Positions 41,869-53,187 of a DNA stretch of 64,000 nt are shown here, piece by piece; position 1 is the first letter of the stretch; every line of letters starts with the position of its first letter. The position numbers and the translations under genes are program-made. The DNA is from an uncultured bacterium. GTDB lineage: Bacteria; Planctomycetota; UBA1135; GCA-002686595. The DNA is taken from positions 491,708-555,707 of the forward strand of contig CALSNU010000003.1 in NCBI GenBank assembly GCA_943787795.1, read 5' to 3'. The notes below the pieces were generated by a model that saw nothing but the letters and a program-made list of their open reading frames with translations, ran no database searches and was not told the origin of the DNA.

Positions 41869-42081
41869 TCAGGGGGTCGAGAGTTCCCCTTGGGCGCGCT
41901 TGAACCAAGCGATGGTGCGGTCGAGGTGCTTCGTCCCGTAGAGCTTGGTGAACTCCCGGGTCTTGGGATGGTCGGGGTCGCGCATCTCGGCGAGGCGGGC
42001 GTCGACGAACTCCTGCGTCAACGGGATGCCGCAGCGGACTTCGATGCACTCGCGCCAGGCCTCGTAGGTGGTGAGGTTCAT
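41869..42081 (-). CDS. Small conserved-looking hypothetical protein
   Basis: MNLTTYEAWRECIEVRCGIPLTQEFVDARLAEMRDP...YGTKHLDRTIAWF; strong GC3 bias. Confidence 0.75.
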   Translation of the reverse strand: MNLTTYEAWRECIEVRCGIPLTQEFVDARLAEMRDPDHPKTREFTKLYGTKHLDRTIAWFKRAQGELSTP

Positions 42082-42189
42082 GGGTGGGTCGTGTGAGTCA
42101 TTCAAAGGGCCTGTCGGCATGGACGGTCCAGCGGCGACGAGGTGTTGAGGGATGGGGCCTCCGCAACGTACGCGCGGGAGGGCGGAGAC

Positions 42190-42864
42190 TCACTCGATCC
42201 AGTCGAGGGTGAGCACCACCCGTCGTCCTCCGTTGGGCGGGGGCGATCGGTGGACGACGGCGCGCTCGGACGCGTACGGCCAGGTCGTTCCCTTGAAGAT
42301 CGCCAGGTGGCCGCAGTCGGAGCGGCCGAGGCGATCCCAGCTTCGGACGAGGCCGGAGGTGGCATCGTCGGGGCCTCCGGCGTGGCCCAGGCGCGCGCGG
42401 TCGACGTCCCGGTCGTCGAGCCACTCCGTCGGGGCCCCAAGGACATTGAGCACCCCCCGCGCCACGACGCGGTCCACATGGAACCGAGGACAGTGGGGCC
42501 CATCGGCCACCAACTGACGAACTCCGACCGCCTCAGCGCCCAGGAGCTGGGCAAAGACGCTGACGGCCTCTTCCACGTAGGCCACCCACGCGGCCGCGTC
42601 GTCGTCGGCCTCGAGCGCGAGTGGCGCGAGCGCGCCTGTGAGTGGCTCGCCCTCGGGCGTCGCGACCTCGGCGGTCCAGCTTCGGGGCCCGGCCCGGGCC
42701 AGCGCCTCCGCATGTGCGAGCGCCGCCGCGCTGGGCTCGATGGGCGCGGTCACGAGCATCACCTCGGGCTCGTAGAGCCGCGCGAGGTCGGGCAGCGTGG
42801 TCCCGCGAACAACGGGCTCAGCGGTCGGGCCCAGGGTGGAGGAGGGGAGGTCTGAGTACTGCAA
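42190..42864 (-). CDS. DUF1826 domain-containing protein
   Basis: CPRFHVD, TEWL, AIFKG and VVHRSP...RVVLTLD, the signature of DUF1826; TTG start is uncertain. Confidence 0.85.
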   Translation of the reverse strand: MQYSDLPSSTLGPTAEPVVRGTTLPDLARLYEPEVMLVTAPIEPSAAALAHAEALARAGPRSWTAEVATPEGEPLTGALAPLALEADDDAAAWVAYVEEAVSVFAQLLGAEAVGVRQLVADGPHCPRFHVDRVVARGVLNVLGAPTEWLDDRDVDRARLGHAGGPDDATSGLVRSWDRLGRSDCGHLAIFKGTTWPYASERAVVHRSPPPNGGRRVVLTLDWIE

Positions 42865-43426: not shown

Positions 43427-46117
43427 TCAGCGGTCGTGGGCGTGGCCGTGGTCGTAGTCCATGGCCTCGTCCTCGGTGCGCTTGTCGATGGGGCCGGTGG
43501 ACTGGACGGCGCCGGAGAAGAAGAGGGCGTTGAGGAGGAGGCGGCGGGTGCCGTACCAGACGCCGCGGAAGCAGGGGTCGTCGATCATGGCGGTGACGGT
43601 GCCGCCGCCCATGCGGCGCACGCGGACGGCGGGGGTGCCGGCGATCTTCGCCACGTTGGGCTCACTGGCGAAGCCGGAGACCAGGGGGCTCTCGGTGTAG
43701 CGCAGGGGGGTCGCGAAGGGGTCGGGGCCCTCGGGCAGGACGCCCTCGAAGTTACGGAAGACGGGGACAGTGTCCCGGTCGAAGCCGTAGCCCAGCGGGT
43801 GGGTGCGATCGATGCGGGCCTCAAAGATGGTGCCGGCGATGCGCTGCTCGGCGCGGCGGGCCTCGTACTCGCCGTAGGGGATGTCGCCGGGCTCGGCCTC
43901 GTCGTCCTCATCGTGGGCGTCGTGGTCGTGGTCGCTCGCCTTTGTGGTCATGAGGCGTTCGGCCGCCCACAGGGCGGAGCGCTTGGTGGCGATCACGTGG
44001 CCGCCGTCGCGGACCCAGGCGCCGAGCTGGTCGGCCTCCTTCTCGCCCCAGCCGCCCGTGGCGCCGTTGACGAGGATGACGTGGGTGTAGTCGGCGAGGT
44101 CCAGGCGCGCGAGGCGCGCGCGGTCCACGGTGCTGATCGTGAGGCCGACCCGCGTGTCCAGGTCGTGCCAGACCTCGCCCGCCTCATAGGCGGAGACGCC
44201 CGAACCGATGAGGAGCAGCGGCTTCGGCTCGCGCAGGACGCTGAAGGAGCCGCTGCCGAGGTCGGGGCCCACGTCGGTCAGGCCGGTGGCGATGGGGATC
44301 AGCTCGAGGCCGTGCTCGCGGGCGTCCAGGAGCGCGGCGGTGATGGCCTTTGCGGAGAGCTCTTGGGGGCCCATGGGCACCAGAATGGCGCCGGGGTCCA
44401 GGGTGACCCGGCGGCCAGCGGACTGGCCGGCGATGGTGACCTCCTTCGTGAGGACGCTGGTGCGGATGCCAGCGGCCTGCAGGTGCGCGAGCCCGGCGGC
44501 GGCGCCGGAGCTGTGCCACTGGAAGGCGTAGGCGGTGACCTCCCCGTCGGACCACAGCTCGCGGTCGGAAGCGTCGCGCGTGGGGTCCGCGACCTCGCCC
44601 ACCAGGTCGCCGCTCCACTTCGCCATCGGCACCGCCTCACAGCGCACGTCAAAGCTCAGGGGGAAGGTCCAGGAGGACACGTCGTAGAAGGTGTTGTCGT
44701 CCCAGGAGGTGCGCGTCTCGAAGAGCGCGCGCACGAGCTTGGCCTGAGGCTGGTCCGAGGGGATGACGTAGGACTCGTCCTCGGGGAAGCCCTCGAGGTC
44801 CTCGGCCAGCTCGTGGACGGCGATGCCGTGGCGCTGGATCCGGTCCACCATCTCGTTCAATCGGAAGCGGTCACGGTCGGTGACCACGTAGCCGCCGACG
44901 TCGCCTTCCCGAGCCTCGGCGCGGGCGTCGCGGAAGAACTCGCGCTGGTACGCGCCGAGCTTGACCCGCATGCGGTCCGCGGCCTCGAGGGTCGTCAGGG
45001 AGGTGGTGAACTGGTTGCGGATCGTGAAGGGGAAGGTGAGCTCGCCGCGCTTGGTGCTCATCAGGTGGCCGCGGGAGCTCGCCTGCTCGAACAAGATCCC
45101 GATGGCGCCCTGGAGGTCGGGGTACGTGGAGCCCTTGCCGTAGTAGAAGTCGTCGAAGCGCTCCTCGGTGAAGTACAGGCTCCCCATGGCGTCCAGCGCC
45201 GCGGCGTGGAACTTCGCGATCTCCCCGGTGAGCTGCTGGTTGCGCTCGGGGGTCAGGGGATTGCGGCGGCTGGGGATCCCCGGCTGGAAGAAGTAGGTCG
45301 AGTCGCTCCCCATCTCGTGGTAGTCGGTGAGCACCGTGGGCATCCAGCGGTGGAAGGCCGCTACGCGCCCGCGGGACTCGGGGTGGGTGAGCAGCAGCCA
45401 GTCTCGGTTCAGGTCGAACCAGTAGTGGTTGGTGCGCCCGCCCGGCCAGGCCTCGTTGTGCTCGCGGGAGGCGGGGTCACCCACCAGCTGCCGGCCCCGG
45501 TGCATGTTCGCCCAGTGGGCGAAGCGCGCGCCGCCGTCGGGGTTCACGCAGGGGTCCACGAGGACCACCGTGCGCTCCAGGTAGGCGTCGAACTCCGCGC
45601 CGCTGGCGGCGGCGAGGTGATAGAGCAGGAGCAGGCTGGCGTTGGCCGCGCTCGACTCGTTGCCGTGGACGCCGTAGCCCATCCAGACCACCGAGGGGCC
45701 GTCGTAGTCGGCGGCGCCCGTGAGGACCGCCGAGCGGTGGGCGGCGCGGATCTCCTCGATGCGCGCGAGGTTCGCCGGCGAGCTGATGGTGGCCAGCAGC
45801 GTGGGCCGGGCCTCGTGGGTCTGGCCGGTCTGCTCCAAAGCCACGCGCGGGGACTTGTCGGCGACCACCTCGAACCAGCGCACGAGCTGGTCATGGCGCA
45901 CGTGCCAGGTGCCGACGGGCCAGCCGAGGACCGACTCGGGGCGCGGGAAGTCCGGGTCGTAGGCCTGGCCCGAGGGCAGGTACGTCTCCAGGGTCGGGGG
46001 CCAGAGCGTCTCGTGTTCCAGGGCTCCGCCCTGGGCAGCCTCGGCGCGGGGCGCGGCGAGCAGGAGGACGGCGGTGCTGGCGAGGAGGCTACGTCGGATC
46101 AGGGAGAGCGCGGTCAT
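43427..46117 (-). CDS. M14-family zinc carboxypeptidase, secreted
   Basis: Signal peptide; VHGNE, NPDG, GRTNHYWFDLNRDW, DYHEMG and GKGSTYPD. Confidence 0.92.
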   Translation of the reverse strand: MTALSLIRRSLLASTAVLLLAAPRAEAAQGGALEHETLWPPTLETYLPSGQAYDPDFPRPESVLGWPVGTWHVRHDQLVRWFEVVADKSPRVALEQTGQTHEARPTLLATISSPANLARIEEIRAAHRSAVLTGAADYDGPSVVWMGYGVHGNESSAANASLLLLYHLAAASGAEFDAYLERTVVLVDPCVNPDGGARFAHWANMHRGRQLVGDPASREHNEAWPGGRTNHYWFDLNRDWLLLTHPESRGRVAAFHRWMPTVLTDYHEMGSDSTYFFQPGIPSRRNPLTPERNQQLTGEIAKFHAAALDAMGSLYFTEERFDDFYYGKGSTYPDLQGAIGILFEQASSRGHLMSTKRGELTFPFTIRNQFTTSLTTLEAADRMRVKLGAYQREFFRDARAEAREGDVGGYVVTDRDRFRLNEMVDRIQRHGIAVHELAEDLEGFPEDESYVIPSDQPQAKLVRALFETRTSWDDNTFYDVSSWTFPLSFDVRCEAVPMAKWSGDLVGEVADPTRDASDRELWSDGEVTAYAFQWHSSGAAAGLAHLQAAGIRTSVLTKEVTIAGQSAGRRVTLDPGAILVPMGPQELSAKAITAALLDAREHGLELIPIATGLTDVGPDLGSGSFSVLREPKPLLLIGSGVSAYEAGEVWHDLDTRVGLTISTVDRARLARLDLADYTHVILVNGATGGWGEKEADQLGAWVRDGGHVIATKRSALWAAERLMTTKASDHDHDAHDEDDEAEPGDIPYGEYEARRAEQRIAGTIFEARIDRTHPLGYGFDRDTVPVFRNFEGVLPEGPDPFATPLRYTESPLVSGFASEPNVAKIAGTPAVRVRRMGGGTVTAMIDDPCFRGVWYGTRRLLLNALFFSGAVQSTGPIDKRTEDEAMDYDHGHAHDR

Positions 46118-46216
46118 GCAGAGAGTGTGCACGACAGCCCCGCATCTCGGACAGGCTGGGCGCCTCTTCTGCCCGTGGGCGGGCCCGCAGCAGGCGGAGC
46201 CGCGGGCGAGGTGCCC

Positions 46217-46810
46217 TCAGTCTGACCCGCCGGGGAACCAGGGGTCGATGGGCTCTCCGTCGCGCTCCTTGCCCTCCACGAAGCCTCCGCGCAGGGACGC
46301 CGCGTAGGCGGACACCAGCACGATCTCGTTCATGCTTAGCTGGTCCTTCCAGGCGGGCATGCCCGCCGCGATGGAGCCGCCGATGACGGTCTCGGCCACG
46401 TCCTCCAGTTTGCGCACGCGGATGTAGTGGTCGTCGGTCAGGTTCGGACCGGAGACGCCGGCCCCGTCGCTGCCGTGGCAAGAGACGCAGTTCGCCGCGA
46501 AGATCGACTGACCGACCCTCAGCCAACGGCTCTTCTCGGGGTCGGTCATGAACGCGCCCATGGTCCCCGCGGTCGGCGCCAGGTTGCCGATCTCCGCGAA
46601 CTGGGCCTGGAGCTCGGCGGTCACGGCGCGGTCGTAGCTCGCCGCGGGGTCCGTCAGGTCCGGGCGGATCACCGACAGGAAGATCGAGCCGAAGGCCAGC
46701 ACCGCAGTGGCCAGCGCCGCGAGGGACCACCAGCCGGGGAGGGGGTGGTCTCCCTCCTCGATACCATGCGCCGGGGGGCGCTGGGGCTGGCTGGGGTCGA
46801 GGTCTGACAT
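46217..46810 (-). CDS. ccoP: cbb3-type cytochrome c oxidase subunit III-like monoheme cytochrome c
   Basis: N-terminal HGIEEGDHPLPGWW (FixP/CcoP N-terminal motif), TM helix, CVSCH, GPNLTD and GMPAW. Confidence 0.85.
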   Translation of the reverse strand: MSDLDPSQPQRPPAHGIEEGDHPLPGWWSLAALATAVLAFGSIFLSVIRPDLTDPAASYDRAVTAELQAQFAEIGNLAPTAGTMGAFMTDPEKSRWLRVGQSIFAANCVSCHGSDGAGVSGPNLTDDHYIRVRKLEDVAETVIGGSIAAGMPAWKDQLSMNEIVLVSAYAASLRGGFVEGKERDGEPIDPWFPGGSD

Positions 46811-46874
46811 GGCGCAGTAGGAGTGGGCGGCGGGGCGTTGAGTTCAACCGGGGCGCAAGGCCGCGGGGTCTGGG

Positions 46875-49112
46875 CTACTGGGAGCTCGCCGGGGTGGGGA
46901 GGTCGTCTTGGGAGGGTAGCCCGAGCTGCTGGAGGTAGGCCACCAGGGCGATGGCGTCCGAGGCCTCGAGCGGCACCGGCGCGCCGGCGCCCGGCCGCAG
47001 GAGGGGCGCGCCATTCTGGGCCTCGAACTCCGAGACGAGCTCGGCGGCCTGCGCGGCGGCCCGAGACGCGGCGGCGGTCGGGGTCTTGGTGAGCCCCGAG
47101 CGGTGCACGAGTCGCGGGAGGTCCCTGGGCTGCTCGAAGAGGTGCCGGTAGGACGGCATGATCGAGCCGGGGGAGACGGCCCGCGGGTCGTCCAGGTGGG
47201 TGACCTGCCAGCGCGTGGAGCGGCGGCCACCCTCACGTGCGAGGTCGGGGCCGACGCGGCGGGTGCCCCAGAGGGAGGGGCCGGGCTCCACGGGTTCGGT
47301 GTCGGCGCTGATGGGGCCGTACCGCTTGGTATCCGCGAGCAGGGGCCTCACGGCCTGGGTGTGGCAGGTGGCGCAGCCCTCTCGCTCGTAGACCGTGCGG
47401 CCGTAGGCCTCCAGCGGCGTGAGGGGCGCGGGGGCCGCCGGGGCTGCGCGGAGCAGGGGGCCGAGCTGGATGGTGCCCACGGCGCCCGCCGAGAGCAGGA
47501 TCCAGGAGGCGAGCCGGAGGGGCCGGCGCTCGAGGCGTCGGTGCCACCACAGGGAGCAGAATACCTGCAGGCGGCGGCCCCAGTCGAGGATGGCGCCAGG
47601 GGGCGCGGCGGGCGGCGCTTCCGCTTGGGAGAGGGGCTCGAGAGGCGGCTGAGTGACCGAGGTTCGAGGGTAGGAGGACGGCCGGGCGCCCCAGGTGCGC
47701 AGCAGGTTCCAGGCTCCGGTCAGCGCGCCAGTGAAGAACAGCCCAAGCCCCACCAGGTGCAGGAGCCGGTGTCCCTCCACGCGCGTGACGGCCTCGGTGA
47801 ACTCGGGGTGCAGCAGGTGCCCCTCGGGGGAGAGGGCGCCGAGGACTCCAGCCTGGGCTGCGCCGCTGAAGCGGAGGGCCGCGGCGGAGGTGAGGACCCC
47901 GAGGGTGGCGAGCCAGAAGTGGGCCCGGGCCAGGCCGGCCGAGTGGAGCGGCGCGTGGAAGATCCGCGGGGCCAGCCAGTAGGACCCGGCGAAGACCACC
48001 GATGCGCCCCAGCCCAGGAAGAGCAGCTCCTGGTGGCCTTCCACCCAGTCCGTCGAGCCCACCGCCGCGCTCACGCGGCGCAGGGCCAGCAGCGGGTCTT
48101 CGAGGGCCGCCAGGGCGAAGAAGAAGAGGGCGGCGACCAGGAACGGACGCGCAGGGTCCCGTTCGTCGCGGACCGCTCGCTGCCCGTCCCGCAGGGTGGC
48201 AGCCAGGTTCAGCACCCCGCTGGTGGACGGCACCCAGACGAGGAAGGCGAAGGCCAGGGCCAGGGCCAGGGCCCAGCCGGGCGTCGGCGTCAGGTGCAGG
48301 TGACGGGGGGCGACCCACAGCTGGATCAGCAGCAGCGACCACAGGTGGACGATCGCCATGCGGTAGGAGTGCAGGGGCGCGCGGCTGATGCGCGGCGCGA
48401 GGTCGTAGGCCACGCCGAACAGGCCGATCACCAGGAGGGCCCCCGCGCCGTTGCGCACGTACCACCACTGGAGGGCCGCGTCGGCGGCCCCTGTGAAGGG
48501 CGGGCTGCCGAGGATCGGGTGGTGGAGCGACGCGAGGGCCGCCGCGATCTGGAGGCCCCCGAAGAGGAGGGTGGCCGCGAGGTAGAACCAGAGAGACGCG
48601 TACATGTAGCGCTGGCGCCGCCGCGTCAGCGTCATGAGGAGCTGGACGCCGAACAGGGTCCAGAGGCCTGCAAGGGCGAGGTCCACCGGGGCCTCGGCGG
48701 GGGAGAGCAGCCGCGGCTCCAGGGCGCCGCCGGCCACGGTCCACGCGGCCCAACCCAGCCCGAGCTGCCAGCCCCACAGGTGAAGCGTCCCGAGGGGCGC
48801 CGCGGCCATGGGCGCGCAACACAGCCGCTGGGTGGAGTGGTGCACCAGGGCGAAGAAGCCGTTCCCCAGGAACCCAAGGAGCATCAGGAGCTCTGCGAGG
48901 GGGCGGAGGCGGCCGAAGCCCAGGGCCGGGTGCACGTCCGCGAGCTCGGGGTGCACGAGGCTCCAGCCGGCCAGCGTGCAGAGCGCGAGGGAGGCCAGAG
49001 CCCAGGTCCACGCGGCCGCCAGGTAGCGGCGGGCCGGGTCGTCGTCGAGCCAGGGCCCGGTCGCGCCGGGGGGGCGGTCCTGGTCGGTGGCTTGGCGTGG
49101 GGCAGCGGTCAT
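46875..49112 (-). CDS. cbb3-type oxidase CcoN-CcoO fusion homologue with degenerate heme-copper site
   Basis: FGRLRPL, STQRLC, YASLWFY, QWWY, TDW.GH...LGW and HFWLATLG (CcoN); YEREGCATCHTQAVRP, WGTRRVGPDLAREGG and SIMPSY (CcoO). Confidence 0.88.
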   Translation of the reverse strand: MTAAPRQATDQDRPPGATGPWLDDDPARRYLAAAWTWALASLALCTLAGWSLVHPELADVHPALGFGRLRPLAELLMLLGFLGNGFFALVHHSTQRLCCAPMAAAPLGTLHLWGWQLGLGWAAWTVAGGALEPRLLSPAEAPVDLALAGLWTLFGVQLLMTLTRRRQRYMYASLWFYLAATLLFGGLQIAAALASLHHPILGSPPFTGAADAALQWWYVRNGAGALLVIGLFGVAYDLAPRISRAPLHSYRMAIVHLWSLLLIQLWVAPRHLHLTPTPGWALALALAFAFLVWVPSTSGVLNLAATLRDGQRAVRDERDPARPFLVAALFFFALAALEDPLLALRRVSAAVGSTDWVEGHQELLFLGWGASVVFAGSYWLAPRIFHAPLHSAGLARAHFWLATLGVLTSAAALRFSGAAQAGVLGALSPEGHLLHPEFTEAVTRVEGHRLLHLVGLGLFFTGALTGAWNLLRTWGARPSSYPRTSVTQPPLEPLSQAEAPPAAPPGAILDWGRRLQVFCSLWWHRRLERRPLRLASWILLSAGAVGTIQLGPLLRAAPAAPAPLTPLEAYGRTVYEREGCATCHTQAVRPLLADTKRYGPISADTEPVEPGPSLWGTRRVGPDLAREGGRRSTRWQVTHLDDPRAVSPGSIMPSYRHLFEQPRDLPRLVHRSGLTKTPTAAASRAAAQAAELVSEFEAQNGAPLLRPGAGAPVPLEASDAIALVAYLQQLGLPSQDDLPTPASSQ

Positions 49113-49226: not shown

Positions 49227-50474
49227 TCAGGCGTCTGCGTCTGGGAGCTCCTCGCTTCGGAGCTCATTGCTTCGGAGTTCCTCGGCGAGCCGGCCGAGGA
49301 ACAGCCCGACGTCGGTGACGACGCCCACGGTTTGGGAGGAGCCGCGGTCGCTGAGCTTGGTCACCACCGCGGGGTTGATGTCCACGCACACGACACGGAC
49401 CCACGAGGGCAGCATGTTGCCGACTCCGATGGAGTGCAGCATGGTGCTCAGCATCAGGACCATGCCCGCGTCCTCGAGCTGGTGGGCGTAGGCCTCCTGC
49501 GCCTCGATCAGGTCCATGAGGGTGTCGGGGAGCGGGCCGTCGTCGCGGATCGAGCCGGCCAGCACCACGTCCACGTCGTTCTCGACGCAGGCGTGCATGA
49601 TGCCGCTCTTGAGCACGCCCGTGCGCACGGCCTCGGGGATCGAGCCCGCGTGGTTGATGCGGTTGATGGCCCGCATGTGGTTCTTGTGCCCCTCCTCGAC
49701 GGGCTTACCTGTGCCGAGGCTCACTCCCAGCGAGGTGCCGAAGAAGCAGTTCTCGATGTCGTGCACCGCGAGGGCGTTCCCCGAGAGGATGGCGTCGACC
49801 CAGCCGCCCTCGATCAGGCTGCGGAAGGGGGTGATGCCGTCGGTGTGGATGACCACAGGGCCTGCGACGAAGATGATCCGCTTGCCCTCCTCGCGGGTGC
49901 GGCGCATCTGGCTCGCCACGCGCTTGACGCTGGTCTCGACGCTGCGCTCCGAGCTGATGTCGTTGCTCATGAACGCGAAGGAGGCGCGCTCACCCTGGAC
50001 CTGGTCCAGGTTGACCCGGACACCGGAGACGCCGCAGACCACGAGGTCGCCGGCGCGCACGTCGCGCAGCTTGCGGCAGAGGGGCTCGCCGCCCTCGAGG
50101 ACGATCACAGCGTCCATGCGCTGGGCCCCGACGGAGCGCCAGACCCCATCGAGTCGGATCTCGGTGCGGTGATTGGTGGTGGAGTAGAAATCCTCGGGCA
50201 CGCACATGTCGCGCTCGATGGGGACGAGCCGGGCGTCCCTGGCCGAGGCGACCGCGCAGCCGAAGGACAGGGTGGCCTCGATGGTCTCGCGCAGGGTGGC
50301 CTCGTCCTCGGCCGTGATCTTGAGCTCGATCTCAGACTCGTCGGCGTGGGTCGTGCCCACCTCGAAGCGCAGGATCTCGTAGGACGCGCCGTGCTCGAGG
50401 ATCTGGTCGAAGATCCGCTCGAGGACGTGGGTGTCGATCAGGTGACCCTTGGCGCTGACGGTCTCGTGGAGCAT
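49227..50474 (-). CDS. TIGR00300-family protein (LOR/SDH-like N-terminus; homologous to the C-terminal part of cyanobacterial ArgZ/AgrE)
   Basis: GHLID, FYSTTNHRT, RMDA, FAFMSNDISSER, GPVVIHT, GNALAVHDIE, LAGSIRDDGPLP and KLSDRGS. Confidence 0.88.
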   Translation of the reverse strand: MLHETVSAKGHLIDTHVLERIFDQILEHGASYEILRFEVGTTHADESEIELKITAEDEATLRETIEATLSFGCAVASARDARLVPIERDMCVPEDFYSTTNHRTEIRLDGVWRSVGAQRMDAVIVLEGGEPLCRKLRDVRAGDLVVCGVSGVRVNLDQVQGERASFAFMSNDISSERSVETSVKRVASQMRRTREEGKRIIFVAGPVVIHTDGITPFRSLIEGGWVDAILSGNALAVHDIENCFFGTSLGVSLGTGKPVEEGHKNHMRAINRINHAGSIPEAVRTGVLKSGIMHACVENDVDVVLAGSIRDDGPLPDTLMDLIEAQEAYAHQLEDAGMVLMLSTMLHSIGVGNMLPSWVRVVCVDINPAVVTKLSDRGSSQTVGVVTDVGLFLGRLAEELRSNELRSEELPDADA

Positions 50475-50518: not shown

Positions 50519-51025
50519 TCAGGCCTCGAGCGGCCCGCGGGAGGCCGACCATCGTGCCACGGGAAGCCTCGGACTGTGAGCGGCAGCGGGCGCATCCCAG
50601 CCAGGCTCCAGATCCACGAAGACGCTCGCCTCTACCCGGCGACCGTCCACCGCATCCCACGCCTTCAGATCCGTCAGCACGCCGTCGTCGACCCGGGCGA
50701 TCAGCTGAACCCAGCCGGCCGGTGTGCCCTCCATGTCCAGGTGGCTGGGACATGCCTCCTGGGCGGAGTGGCTGTGCCAGACGCCGAGGATCTCGAGGCC
50801 CTGAGCGCGGACCGCCTGCTCCTGTCGCAGCAGGTGCACCGGGTCCAGGAAGAACCGGTCCGCGGCCGTGGCGAGGTTCTGGGCGACCGTGAGGCGGCGG
50901 ACGCTCCGTTCACCCCCGACGTGCTTCCCGAGGAGGATCCCGCACGCCTCTTGTGGCGCGTGCTCGACCGAGGCGCGGGTGAGCCGGATCACCTGCCGGC
51001 GGTTCAGGGCGATGGGGAGGATCAT
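50519..51025 (-). CDS. JAMM/MPN+ (Mov34, M67) metalloprotease
   Basis: EACGILLG...WHSH...PSHLD, the JAMM motif; ATGA overlap with the upstream gene. Confidence 0.88.
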   Translation of the reverse strand: MILPIALNRRQVIRLTRASVEHAPQEACGILLGKHVGGERSVRRLTVAQNLATAADRFFLDPVHLLRQEQAVRAQGLEILGVWHSHSAQEACPSHLDMEGTPAGWVQLIARVDDGVLTDLKAWDAVDGRRVEASVFVDLEPGWDAPAAAHSPRLPVARWSASRGPLEA

Positions 51026-53187
51026 CGGGACCCTCCCGCAGCCGGAGCCGCTACCGCAGCCGCAGCCTGGGCTGCGGAGAAGGCCTCCACCGCGCGCCAC
51101 ACGCGCAGGGTGTTGCCGGACCAGATCTTCTCGATGTCCTCGGCCGAGTAGCCACGCCGGACCAGCTCGAGCGTGACGTTCCAGGTCTCGCTGGCGTCGC
51201 TCCAGCCCTCGATGCCGCCGCCTCCGTCGAAGTCAGAGCTGATGGCCACATGGTCCACGCCGATACGGCGGACGGCGTGGTCGATGTGATCCACGAAGTC
51301 ACGGACGTTGGCGCGCTCGCGGGCCTCGTCGAAGGCGCGGACGCGTTCGCGGAGCGTCCGGTTGAGGGCGCGCACCTCCGGGTCGGAGCTCGCGGGTCGG
51401 CTGCCCTGCTGCGGGGGTAGCCCGAGCTCCTCGCGGGTCCGCCGGATGAAGCCCCGGCGGTCTCCGTCGTCCTTCACGTAGCTCGCGAAGGCCACGCACT
51501 GGATCACGCCGCCGTTCGCCTTGAGCGCGTCGAGCTCCGCGTCGCTCAGGTTGCGCCCGTGCAGTCGGACGGCGTCCACGCCGGAGTGGGAGGCGATCAC
51601 CGGGGCCTTCGAGTGCGCGATGGCCTCGAGGCTGGTCTTCTCGGAGGCGTGGGAGATGTCGACCATGATTCCCACGCGGTTCATCTCCTCGATGGCGCGG
51701 CGCCCGAGGTCCGAGAGCCCGCCGTGCAGCGGCTCGTCCGCCGGCGTGTTGGAGTCGCCGAGCTGGCTGTGCTTGTTGTGGGTGAGGCTCATGTACCGAG
51801 CCCCTCGCCCGTGGAACGTCTCGATGGCAGAGAGGTCCTCGCCCATGGCGTAGCCGTTCTCGATCCCGATGCAGGCCACAAGGCGGCCCTCGGCGGCGAT
51901 TCGCTCCACGTCCGCTGCGCTGCGGGCGAGGCCGATCTCGTCGGGGAAGCGCTCGGCCATGCGCTCGATGGCGTCGAACTTGGCGTCGGCGGCGGCGCGT
52001 GCCCTGGAGAAGGCCTCGGGGGTGAGGTCCCCCTGCCCGACGTAGACGATGAAGAACGCGACATCGAGGCCGCCGCTGCGCATCTTCGGGAAGTCCACCT
52101 GGTTGCGGCCCCAGACCCGCGGGTCGCTGCGCAGGAGGAAGCGGCGCAGCGCCGCGGGGTCCTCGGGGATCTCCACAGAGGCCAGGGACGTCGAGATGTC
52201 CTTGTGGGTGTCGAGGGTCAAGGCGGCGGCGTGGATCGCCCGCGCGCGCTCGAGGATCGCCGTCTCGGGCCCCGCACCAAGGATCCAGCACTGGTAGGCG
52301 AGGGGCAGCGCGAGGCGGCTCCGCTCCTTGAGGTCAGGCCCGAGCTCCACAACGATCAGGCCGGGCTCGCCGTCGCTGCGCGGCCCGGCGATGGCCCAGC
52401 CCTCGTTGACCAGGCTCTGGGCGGTCAGGATGGGCCGGACGGTGAGCACCGCCTCGAGACCCAGGTTGCGTACGGCCGCGGGGGTGAGGACGGTCTCCTC
52501 TCGCACGCGGTCTAAGCCGCCTGCGTGGACGGCCACCAGGGCTCCGTCCGCGCGGACGCCAGCCCAACCGTCGCCCGTGGCCACAGGGTGGCGGAGCACG
52601 TCGGCGGCCCACTTTCGGCGACTTGAGAGAGCGCCCATGTCGACGTCCTCCACGTGTCCGGTACCGCGGTGGACCAGGAGTCGCTCGTCCTCTCCGATGT
52701 CGAGGCCGAGGCGATGGAGCTCGTCGGCGGCAAGGCCGTTGTTCGTGGGGGTGGCGAGGAGGCGGGAGCCGGGCCAGAGCGCACCCGCTACCTCCACATC
52801 TGTTCGGCCGCCAAGGCGATCAAGCAGCCACAGCTCTCCGGCGGCAGCGACCGCGATCCTCCCGTCCGGAAGGAGAGTGAAGGCGTCGATGGAGGCGTCT
52901 GGCAGCCCCCAAACGCGCCGGCCGTCGGTCCCTCGAAACTCGCTGATCCCCCCCCCGGAATCCAGCACGATCAGGTTGCCGTTGGGGAGGCCCTCGACCT
53001 CCCGGGCATGGACGCGGACCAAGGTTGTGTCCGGCGCGTAGCCTGCCCCCGGCGGTGTGGTTGTGACGGCGAGAGAAGGTCCGCCCTCCAGCCGCTGGAG
53101 CGAGGCGACGTGGAGCTGAGCGCGCGCGGCCGCGGGCGGCGTGACGGTCAAGGTGGCGAGCGCAAGGAGGCCTGGGAAGAAGCGCAT
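51022..53187 (-). CDS. Secreted M19 membrane dipeptidase with extra N-terminal beta-rich domain
   Basis: DTHKD, QVDFPKMRSGGLD, GIENG, SLTHN, DISH, ASHS and SSDFDGGG; roughly 290-aa N-terminal extension after the signal peptide. Confidence 0.88.
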   Translation of the reverse strand: MRFFPGLLALATLTVTPPAAARAQLHVASLQRLEGGPSLAVTTTPPGAGYAPDTTLVRVHAREVEGLPNGNLIVLDSGGGISEFRGTDGRRVWGLPDASIDAFTLLPDGRIAVAAAGELWLLDRLGGRTDVEVAGALWPGSRLLATPTNNGLAADELHRLGLDIGEDERLLVHRGTGHVEDVDMGALSSRRKWAADVLRHPVATGDGWAGVRADGALVAVHAGGLDRVREETVLTPAAVRNLGLEAVLTVRPILTAQSLVNEGWAIAGPRSDGEPGLIVVELGPDLKERSRLALPLAYQCWILGAGPETAILERARAIHAAALTLDTHKDISTSLASVEIPEDPAALRRFLLRSDPRVWGRNQVDFPKMRSGGLDVAFFIVYVGQGDLTPEAFSRARAAADAKFDAIERMAERFPDEIGLARSAADVERIAAEGRLVACIGIENGYAMGEDLSAIETFHGRGARYMSLTHNKHSQLGDSNTPADEPLHGGLSDLGRRAIEEMNRVGIMVDISHASEKTSLEAIAHSKAPVIASHSGVDAVRLHGRNLSDAELDALKANGGVIQCVAFASYVKDDGDRRGFIRRTREELGLPPQQGSRPASSDPEVRALNRTLRERVRAFDEARERANVRDFVDHIDHAVRRIGVDHVAISSDFDGGGGIEGWSDASETWNVTLELVRRGYSAEDIEKIWSGNTLRVWRAVEAFSAAQAAAAVAAPAAGGSR

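Follow-up and report, generated by a model that had tools for sequence, protein, structure and literature searches.

The closest described counterparts of the system treated here are cbb3-type oxidases, in whose catalytic subunit CcoN (Pseudomonas stutzeri numbering) H60 and H347 are presumably the bis-His ligands of the low-spin heme b, H345 the ligand of heme b3 and Y251 the cross-linked tyrosine of helix VII, while we take E122, E125, T215, S240, Y317, N333 and H337 to serve calcium, propionate or proton handling. The CuB ligands are H207, H257 and H258, as given in a study on Nitrospina gracilis, whose fused cbb3 oxidase has an unusual active-site sequence with changes at W203 and flanking residues (PMC3578206). 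In Neisseria, a heme domain of the tri-heme CcoP supports nitrite reduction by NirK, so that a cbb3 c-type subunit serves a pathway other than oxygen reduction (PMC2924362). A non-catalytic role has also been described for the Rhodobacter sphaeroides enzyme, where the signal to PrrBA/RegBA follows electron flow via the active oxidase (PMC4742706). Here we describe a two-gene module, a CcoN-CcoO fusion gene designated ccoNO* followed by ccoP, within a 64,000-nucleotide stretch (the window) of an uncultured planctomycete (GTDB lineage UBA1135; GCA-002686595; assembly GCA_943787795.1, contig CALSNU010000003.1, positions 491,708 to 555,707, forward strand), in which the heme-copper site has been dismantled and the c-type hemes have been retained.

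Compared with the P. stutzeri oxidase (PDB 3MK7/5DJQ; fused form PRK14485), the module has the same fold, c-heme sites and ccoNO-ccoP order and descends from such a cluster, but the locus is without ccoQ, ccoG, ccoH and ccoI, most of the ligands are replaced, and both proteins score far under the NCBIfam cut-offs (510 bits against 1080 for the 745-residue protein, labelled bifunctional cbb3 subunit I/II, and 250 against 583 for the 197-residue protein, labelled subunit III). The Neisseria oxidase is active and carries its extra role on an added heme domain, whereas in the module described here a mono-heme CcoP accompanies a dead oxidase; the change described in N. gracilis concerns W203 and flanking residues, while here the ligands themselves are gone; and R. 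sphaeroides is matched by a RegB-like kinase in the genome but not by any co-occurrence signal. By descent and fold the protein is a cbb3 oxidase, yet judged from its residues it fails the ligand tests that define these enzymes and ought not to be classified with them. A full-text literature search for a ligand-less CcoN, with most subscription journals outside its scope, found no description. The locus adds a conversion repeated within the Planctomycetota, which in at least one genus took place at the original site of the cluster, and in which the copper site and its chaperones are shed first and intermediates are preserved. The module comprises the following features, in positions of the window:

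46875..49112, minus strand: ccoNO*, CcoN-CcoO fusion with dismantled heme-copper site, an intact open reading frame of 745 amino acids.
47685..49031, minus strand: CcoN-like domain, residues 28-476, with 12 predicted long helices and the cbb3 fold, from alignment and model.
48894..48896, minus strand: A73, replacing the low-spin heme b ligand H60, from alignment and codon position.
48453..48455, minus strand: R220, replacing the CuB ligand H207, from alignment and codon position.
48300..48323, minus strand: Q264 (for the cross-link Y251), R270 (for the CuB ligand H257) and H271 (the retained H258).
48027..48035, minus strand: H360 (the retained heme b3 ligand H345) and E362 (for the heme b ligand H347).
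46908..47546, minus strand: CcoO domain, residues 523-735, with an anchor helix, the CxxCH motif at 47361-47375 and the Met ligand at 47157-47159.
46811..46874, no strand: 64-bp intergenic gap, the place of ccoQ in the canonical clusters of the genus.
46217..46810, minus strand: ccoP, a membrane-anchored mono-heme cytochrome c of 197 amino acids, with CxxCH at 46475-46489 and Met at 46358-46360.

The residues were placed by alignment to P. stutzeri CcoN (3mk7_A; E 1e-70, 31% identity), which is gap-free near the ligands. The replacements are H60A, H207R, Y251Q, H257R and H347E, and H258 and H345 are kept (codon positions A73 48896, R220 48455, Q264 48323, R270 48305, H271 48302, H360 48035, E362 48029). 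Four of the six metal-binding histidines and the cross-link tyrosine have thus been lost: the CuB triad is reduced to R220, R270 and H271, Q264 stands for Y251, and the low-spin pair has become A73 and E362, the remaining histidines of the domain lying at other positions. In canonical CcoNO all seven sites are invariant (31/31). The equivalents of E122, E125, T215, S240, Y317, N333 and H337 are also replaced, while the heme b3 ligand together with E323 is retained, in sequence, as H360 and E338. The preliminary description of this DNA had presented an uninterrupted fusion with a dismantled active site, left with the b3 histidine and one CuB histidine and unable to reduce oxygen; the reading frames are intact, its codon coordinates match, the alignment agrees residue by residue and offers no alternative histidine in the heme b positions, and with the CuB set and the low-spin heme b ligands gone oxygen reduction should indeed be impossible. 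The alignment demonstrates that a CuB site and low-spin heme b binding should both lie beyond this CcoN domain. An AlphaFold2 model (predicted local distance difference test 87, predicted template-modelling score 0.91) superposes on 3mk7 with a template-modelling score of 0.95 and a root-mean-square deviation of 2.0-2.2 Å, a score that training on 3mk7 may help; the model predicts a complete cbb3 scaffold, from which the metal sites are gone. The predicted CcoNO*-CcoP complex scored 0.63, against 0.59 for a control, and was counted for neither side. The cytochrome c-type nitric oxide reductase (cNOR) has six conserved histidines and a non-heme FeB site; identity as a cNOR was rejected, with two of the six histidines left and a fold search placing cbb3 chains far closer. 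By contrast with the dismantled heme-copper site, both c-type hemes keep their ligands, as had been claimed, with CATCH and SIMP giving C580, C583, H584 and M652 in ccoNO*, and CVSCH and GMPAW giving C108, C111, H112 and M151 in ccoP.

Orthologues bearing the same ligand replacements, which the preliminary description had proposed to look for, occur in six further genomes of the genus at 81-85% identity (in one, H60 is replaced by V instead of A; another is a fragment spanning five of the seven sites, and a third ends at a contig end without the CcoO part), so that the replacements are not a sequencing error. The seven ligand-less genomes group together as a single clade (100/100); G008 and G014, which stand nearest to it, bear canonical clusters. 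As far as the contigs extend, the gene order in the clade is ornithine cyclodeaminase, ccoNO*, ccoP and M14 peptidase, while the canonical order in the genus is (rrf2), ccoNO, ccoQ, ccoP, ccoG, ccoH, a further membrane gene and ccoI; missing from the ligand-less locus are thus ccoQ, ccoG, ccoH, ccoI and the rrf2 regulator, and no ccoQ was found in the 64 bp that separate ccoNO* from ccoP. The absence of adjacent ccoQ and ccoGHIS genes, pointed out earlier, is borne out by the neighbours:

49227..50444, minus strand: ornithine cyclodeaminase (TIGR00300), upstream neighbour and synteny marker outside the module.
43427..46132, minus strand: M14 peptidase, downstream neighbour outside the module, occupying the canonical ccoG-ccoH-ccoI place.

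In G014 a canonical cluster lies one gene beyond the same cyclodeaminase. The window's own genome (G000; 4.7 Mb, 85% complete, with close homologues labelled Planctomycetota and matching sequencing runs that are marine) contains two heme-copper subunit I genes, ccoNO* and an A-type oxidase with intact ligand motifs within an operon of alternative complex III (ACIII), SCO and caa3 oxidase. Searches of G000 found no ccoG, ccoS, ccoH, ccoQ or ccoI in this 85% complete assembly, and a CcoI-type P1B ATPase was likewise without a tblastn match anywhere in it. The genome does have a cytochrome c assembly gene and six CCP/MauG-family genes. In a sample of 18 draft genomes of the genus (70-90% complete; the seven of the clade 78-90%), ccoG accompanies canonical ccoNO in 7/7 genomes and was seen in 0/7 with the ligand-less copy only and in 0/4 without ccoNO. 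The bd oxidase occurs in three of the 18, none of which bears a ligand-less copy. One member of the clade, G017 (L038, G017:C66), has both forms, with an extra canonical rrf2-ccoNOQPGH cluster; at the corresponding site in G000 (C6:523229 onward) the flanking genes are present and a cco remnant is absent. Given the outlying position of its CcoP, the G017 cluster may have been reacquired. The genus contains another ligand-less form, L039 (G013:C523), which has only H257 left of the seven residues; G010, a genome very closely related to G013, bears a canonical cluster.

The best 150 of 2947 representatives included dozens of full-length CcoNO fusions that have lost ligands, the replacements differing each time. 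Ligand-deficient loci made up seven of the 80 genome loci fetched with an alignment of these fusions, and all seven are two-gene ccoNO*-ccoP loci without ccoQGHI. Five of these, labelled Rubripirellula or Rhodopirellula, share their flanking genes with L110 and L111, where a full canonical cluster occupies the same site, and lack everything from ccoG to ccoI. This arrangement of two genes is seen again and again, at L039, L107-L109, L120, L121, L129 and L174. Among five Pirellulaceae genomes searched, the A-type oxidase was found in all, canonical cbb3 in one, and ccoG in that one (1/1) and in none of the others (0/4). Both forms stand together in G017, G483 and the genome of L148/L174. A CcoNO tree of 53 rows needs three changes of state and a CcoP tree three to four, and a single ligand-less group is rejected by the approximately unbiased (AU) test (p 3.9e-8; 34 rows, 15 ligand-less against 19 canonical). 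The ligand-less conversion has arisen at least three times, the trees rejecting a single origin, and the idea of one ancient paralogue family, suggested by a first tree, was ruled out by the same test. This repeated conversion across the Planctomycetota is an addition to what had been noted before. The place of the window clade is unstable, being within a weak long-branch group in one tree and beside the canonical genes of the genus in another. Both CcoNO trees put the G013 copy with the window clade, whereas the CcoP tree puts it with canonical G012/G002 (99/95), which makes a second origin inside the genus possible.

Most ligand-less clusters are small, with one to four members. In a sample of 301 genomes of the phylum, 55 had a match, and besides G000 and G004 the best 50 were canonical at the sites covered; three matches were left unread, and with scoring confined to three candidates per genome, second copies may have been missed. 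When the family of G299 was searched with P0018, the loci read contained no ligand-less copies. Ligand-less CcoN was also seen in other cbb3 subfamilies outside the fused group (P0078, P0115, P0151, P0154; P0055, P0063, P0120, P0156; P0113). In P0102 and P0108, CcoNO of another subfamily, Met replaces H347 with the remaining ligands intact, which makes a His/Met heme b possible in these two.

The order of loss was read from 41 dereplicated ligand-deficient fusions, leaving out nine rows of other subfamilies and four near-copies. None of the 41 has an unbroken CuB/Tyr set; 21 still have both heme b ligands and 18 the b3 ligand. Outside these 41, P0102, P0108 and P0113 have altered heme ligands and an intact CuB site. 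No common replacement residue appears at the lost sites. Of the CcoO heme ligands, the two Cys and the His are kept in 41/41 and the Met in 40/41, and the fraction of canonically conserved positions that survives is 0.58 in the N domain against 0.85 in CcoO. Since the fusions were picked by whole-length similarity or by a CcoO pattern and had to cover CcoO, the set is biased towards a conserved CcoO. The heme ligands of CcoP are invariant at 14/14 ligand-less and 10/10 canonical loci. The window's protein has two histidines left, a number that does not exceed what a background retention of 0.50-0.58 predicts, and by its residues the protein is best placed at a late stage of ligand loss.

The ratio of nonsynonymous to synonymous substitution rates (dN/dS) was calculated by the Nei-Gojobori method among the seven clade genomes, the canonical rows being left unused (the G014 sequence is out of frame). 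It is 0.16-0.28 for the whole of ccoNO*, with a median of 0.17 (0.13-0.26) in the N domain and 0.23 in CcoO, and 0.15 for ccoP, against 0.08 and 0.155 for the neighbouring genes; the seven copies contain no stop codons. Between G000 and G004 the median over 240 orthologue pairs (~0.4 Mb) is 0.159, and the same comparison gives 0.229 for ccoNO* (76th percentile), 0.170 for ccoP (55th) and 0.033 for the A-type subunit I. Both genes are under purifying selection, with dN/dS inside the normal range of the genome. Simple decay with dN/dS near 1, which had been named as a way to refute the first reading, is not seen, and a pseudogene was rejected on the open frames of 7/7 genomes and these ratios, one database record being frameshifted.

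Selection and the repetition of the conversion in related bacteria indicate that the enzyme probably has a second job. We consider it somewhat more probable than all other outcomes taken together that the protein has no catalytic activity and is retained as a membrane scaffold for the c-hemes of CcoO and CcoP, which would form an electron relay; a scaffold for c-type cytochromes was among the roles suggested earlier and is judged the most likely of them, the module being maintained under selection. The locus is a former cbb3 cluster cut down to two genes, in which selection would act on the c-type cytochromes, anchored in the membrane and relaying or buffering electrons in the periplasm. The electron donor would most plausibly be alternative complex III and the acceptor the caa3 oxidase or a di-heme peroxidase-family protein, oxygen reduction being left to the intact A-type oxidase. 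The CcoN domain may have been retained as an anchor for the fused CcoO and a stabiliser of CcoP; loss of both c-type cytochromes is usual when CcoN is absent (PMC8267372). More tentatively, and with rather less than even confidence, we propose that planctomycete cbb3 has a second, copper-independent job as a c-heme electron hub, and that lineages repeatedly shed the copper site and chaperones first and the b-heme ligands afterwards, leaving the CcoNO*-CcoP relay on a cofactor-free scaffold; this would be a recurrent path from enzyme to pseudo-enzyme with its stages still visible in present-day genomes.

Several observations weigh against a maintained relay. No redox partner gene adjoins the module at any locus read, and CCP/MauG genes, being present in 18/18 genomes of the genus, do not discriminate. 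Relatives can do without the module, since neither ccoNO nor ccoP was seen in four of the 18. A single-contig record (P0009) has a frameshift following residue 464. With low, even depth across the whole 20 kb, four metatranscriptome contig sets from one marine study cannot show transcription. The selection of the 41 fusions described above belongs here as well, as does the rate of the CcoO heme domain, which is itself relaxed ~8-fold (6.6 against 0.8 relative to a two-gene marker), compared with ~9-fold for the N domain (5.4 against 0.6 in canonical pairs) and ~2-fold for CcoP (4.0 against 2.0); these ratios are rough, since the compared pairs differ in depth.

The raised rates of the N and CcoO heme domains are what a constrained relic en route to deletion would give, transcribed with its neighbours after the loss of the copper chaperones and subject to selection that removes only misfolding changes. 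The lost histidines have mostly become R, Q, E, N or Y, as drift would give, and the missing genes in the genus, the sparse ligand-less lineages and the frameshifted record fit as well. However, the N domain has accumulated ~1.2 substitutions per site relative to its canonical relatives with its frame still open, dN/dS is ordinary for the genome, ccoQ and ccoG/H/I were removed around a retained ccoNO and ccoP in several origins, and the heme c ligands were never lost, so that we regard a relic as unlikely, although it is the strongest of the alternatives. A new one-heme enzyme, in which heme b3 held by H360/E338 and a peroxidase-like distal pocket of R220, R270 and H271 would be fed by the c hemes, is favoured by the invariance of these five residues across 11 clade sequences, in which several of their codons show synonymous changes. 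But 72% of N-domain columns are invariant in the clade anyway. Invariance is 95% at kept canonical-consensus positions, 68% at replaced and 57% at variable ones, and the new residues are without significant extra constraint (71/104 replaced catalytic against 59/103 variable positions invariant, p 0.11). The b3 histidine is absent in 23/41 relatives, the low-spin heme b relay is gone, and the equivalents of E122, N333 and H337 are lost, which makes such an enzyme the least probable of the readings considered.

A redox-signalling partnership with a RegB/PrrB-type kinase, like that of cbb3 in R. sphaeroides, is improbable. A RegB/PrrB-like kinase and a response regulator do stand directly upstream of the complete ACIII-SCO-caa3 operon (G000 C5:75131-93703; L285, L294), outside the window, and RegB-like kinases occur in 5/5 module-bearing Pirellulaceae genomes, at L120 1.5 kb from the module; a cbb3-PrrBA link has been described (PMC4742706). 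The kinase is, however, present in 16/18 genomes of the genus, including all four without ccoNO, the H243 equivalent is kept in 23/41 fusions, which is the background rate, and the published signal needs electron flow through cbb3, while ccoNO* cannot pass electrons to oxygen. The preliminary description had also envisaged that the protein might conduct ions, or be the partner of a working cbb3 oxidase encoded elsewhere, in its regulation or assembly. Three genomes (G017, G483 and that of L148/L174) do hold both forms, and the window clade keeps the N-terminal Glu of CcoP. But that Glu is lost at 8/8 other ligand-less loci, and canonical ccoN or ccoG was not found in six of the seven clade drafts (78-90% complete) or in four of the five Pirellulaceae genomes, which tells against a partner; the proton-path residues, with the equivalents of T215, S240, Y251, Y317 and E122 replaced, make ion conduction unlikely. 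Such roles are accordingly given very little probability, and the scaffold for c-type hemes is preferred.

Genes for cbb3 serve as metagenome markers of low-oxygen respiration, and the ligand-less copies carry that database name; databases wrongly count them as working oxidases, since the catalytic copper cannot be held. If the c-hemes are the target of selection, the enzyme would have a function besides oxygen reduction, testable directly by comparing sister lineages in which one locus does or does not encode the active site. Loss of the copper site, followed by that of the b-heme ligands, gives a series of states that is a natural experiment in the passage from a respiratory enzyme to a pseudo-enzyme.

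A promoter and terminator scan of the locus gave nothing exceeding chance. On the downstream side, 41869-42864 (minus strand) is a DUF1826 gene, followed by an 83-residue open reading frame without a Pfam match. The upstream gene at 49227-50444 (minus strand) is a nickel-pincer-nucleotide-dependent ornithine cyclodeaminase with a TIGR00300 score above the cut-off, and adjoins a JAB/desampylase-like gene at 50519-51100. The gene at 51022-53187 (minus strand) encodes a 721-residue protein with an unannotated N-terminal half and an M19 dipeptidase domain.

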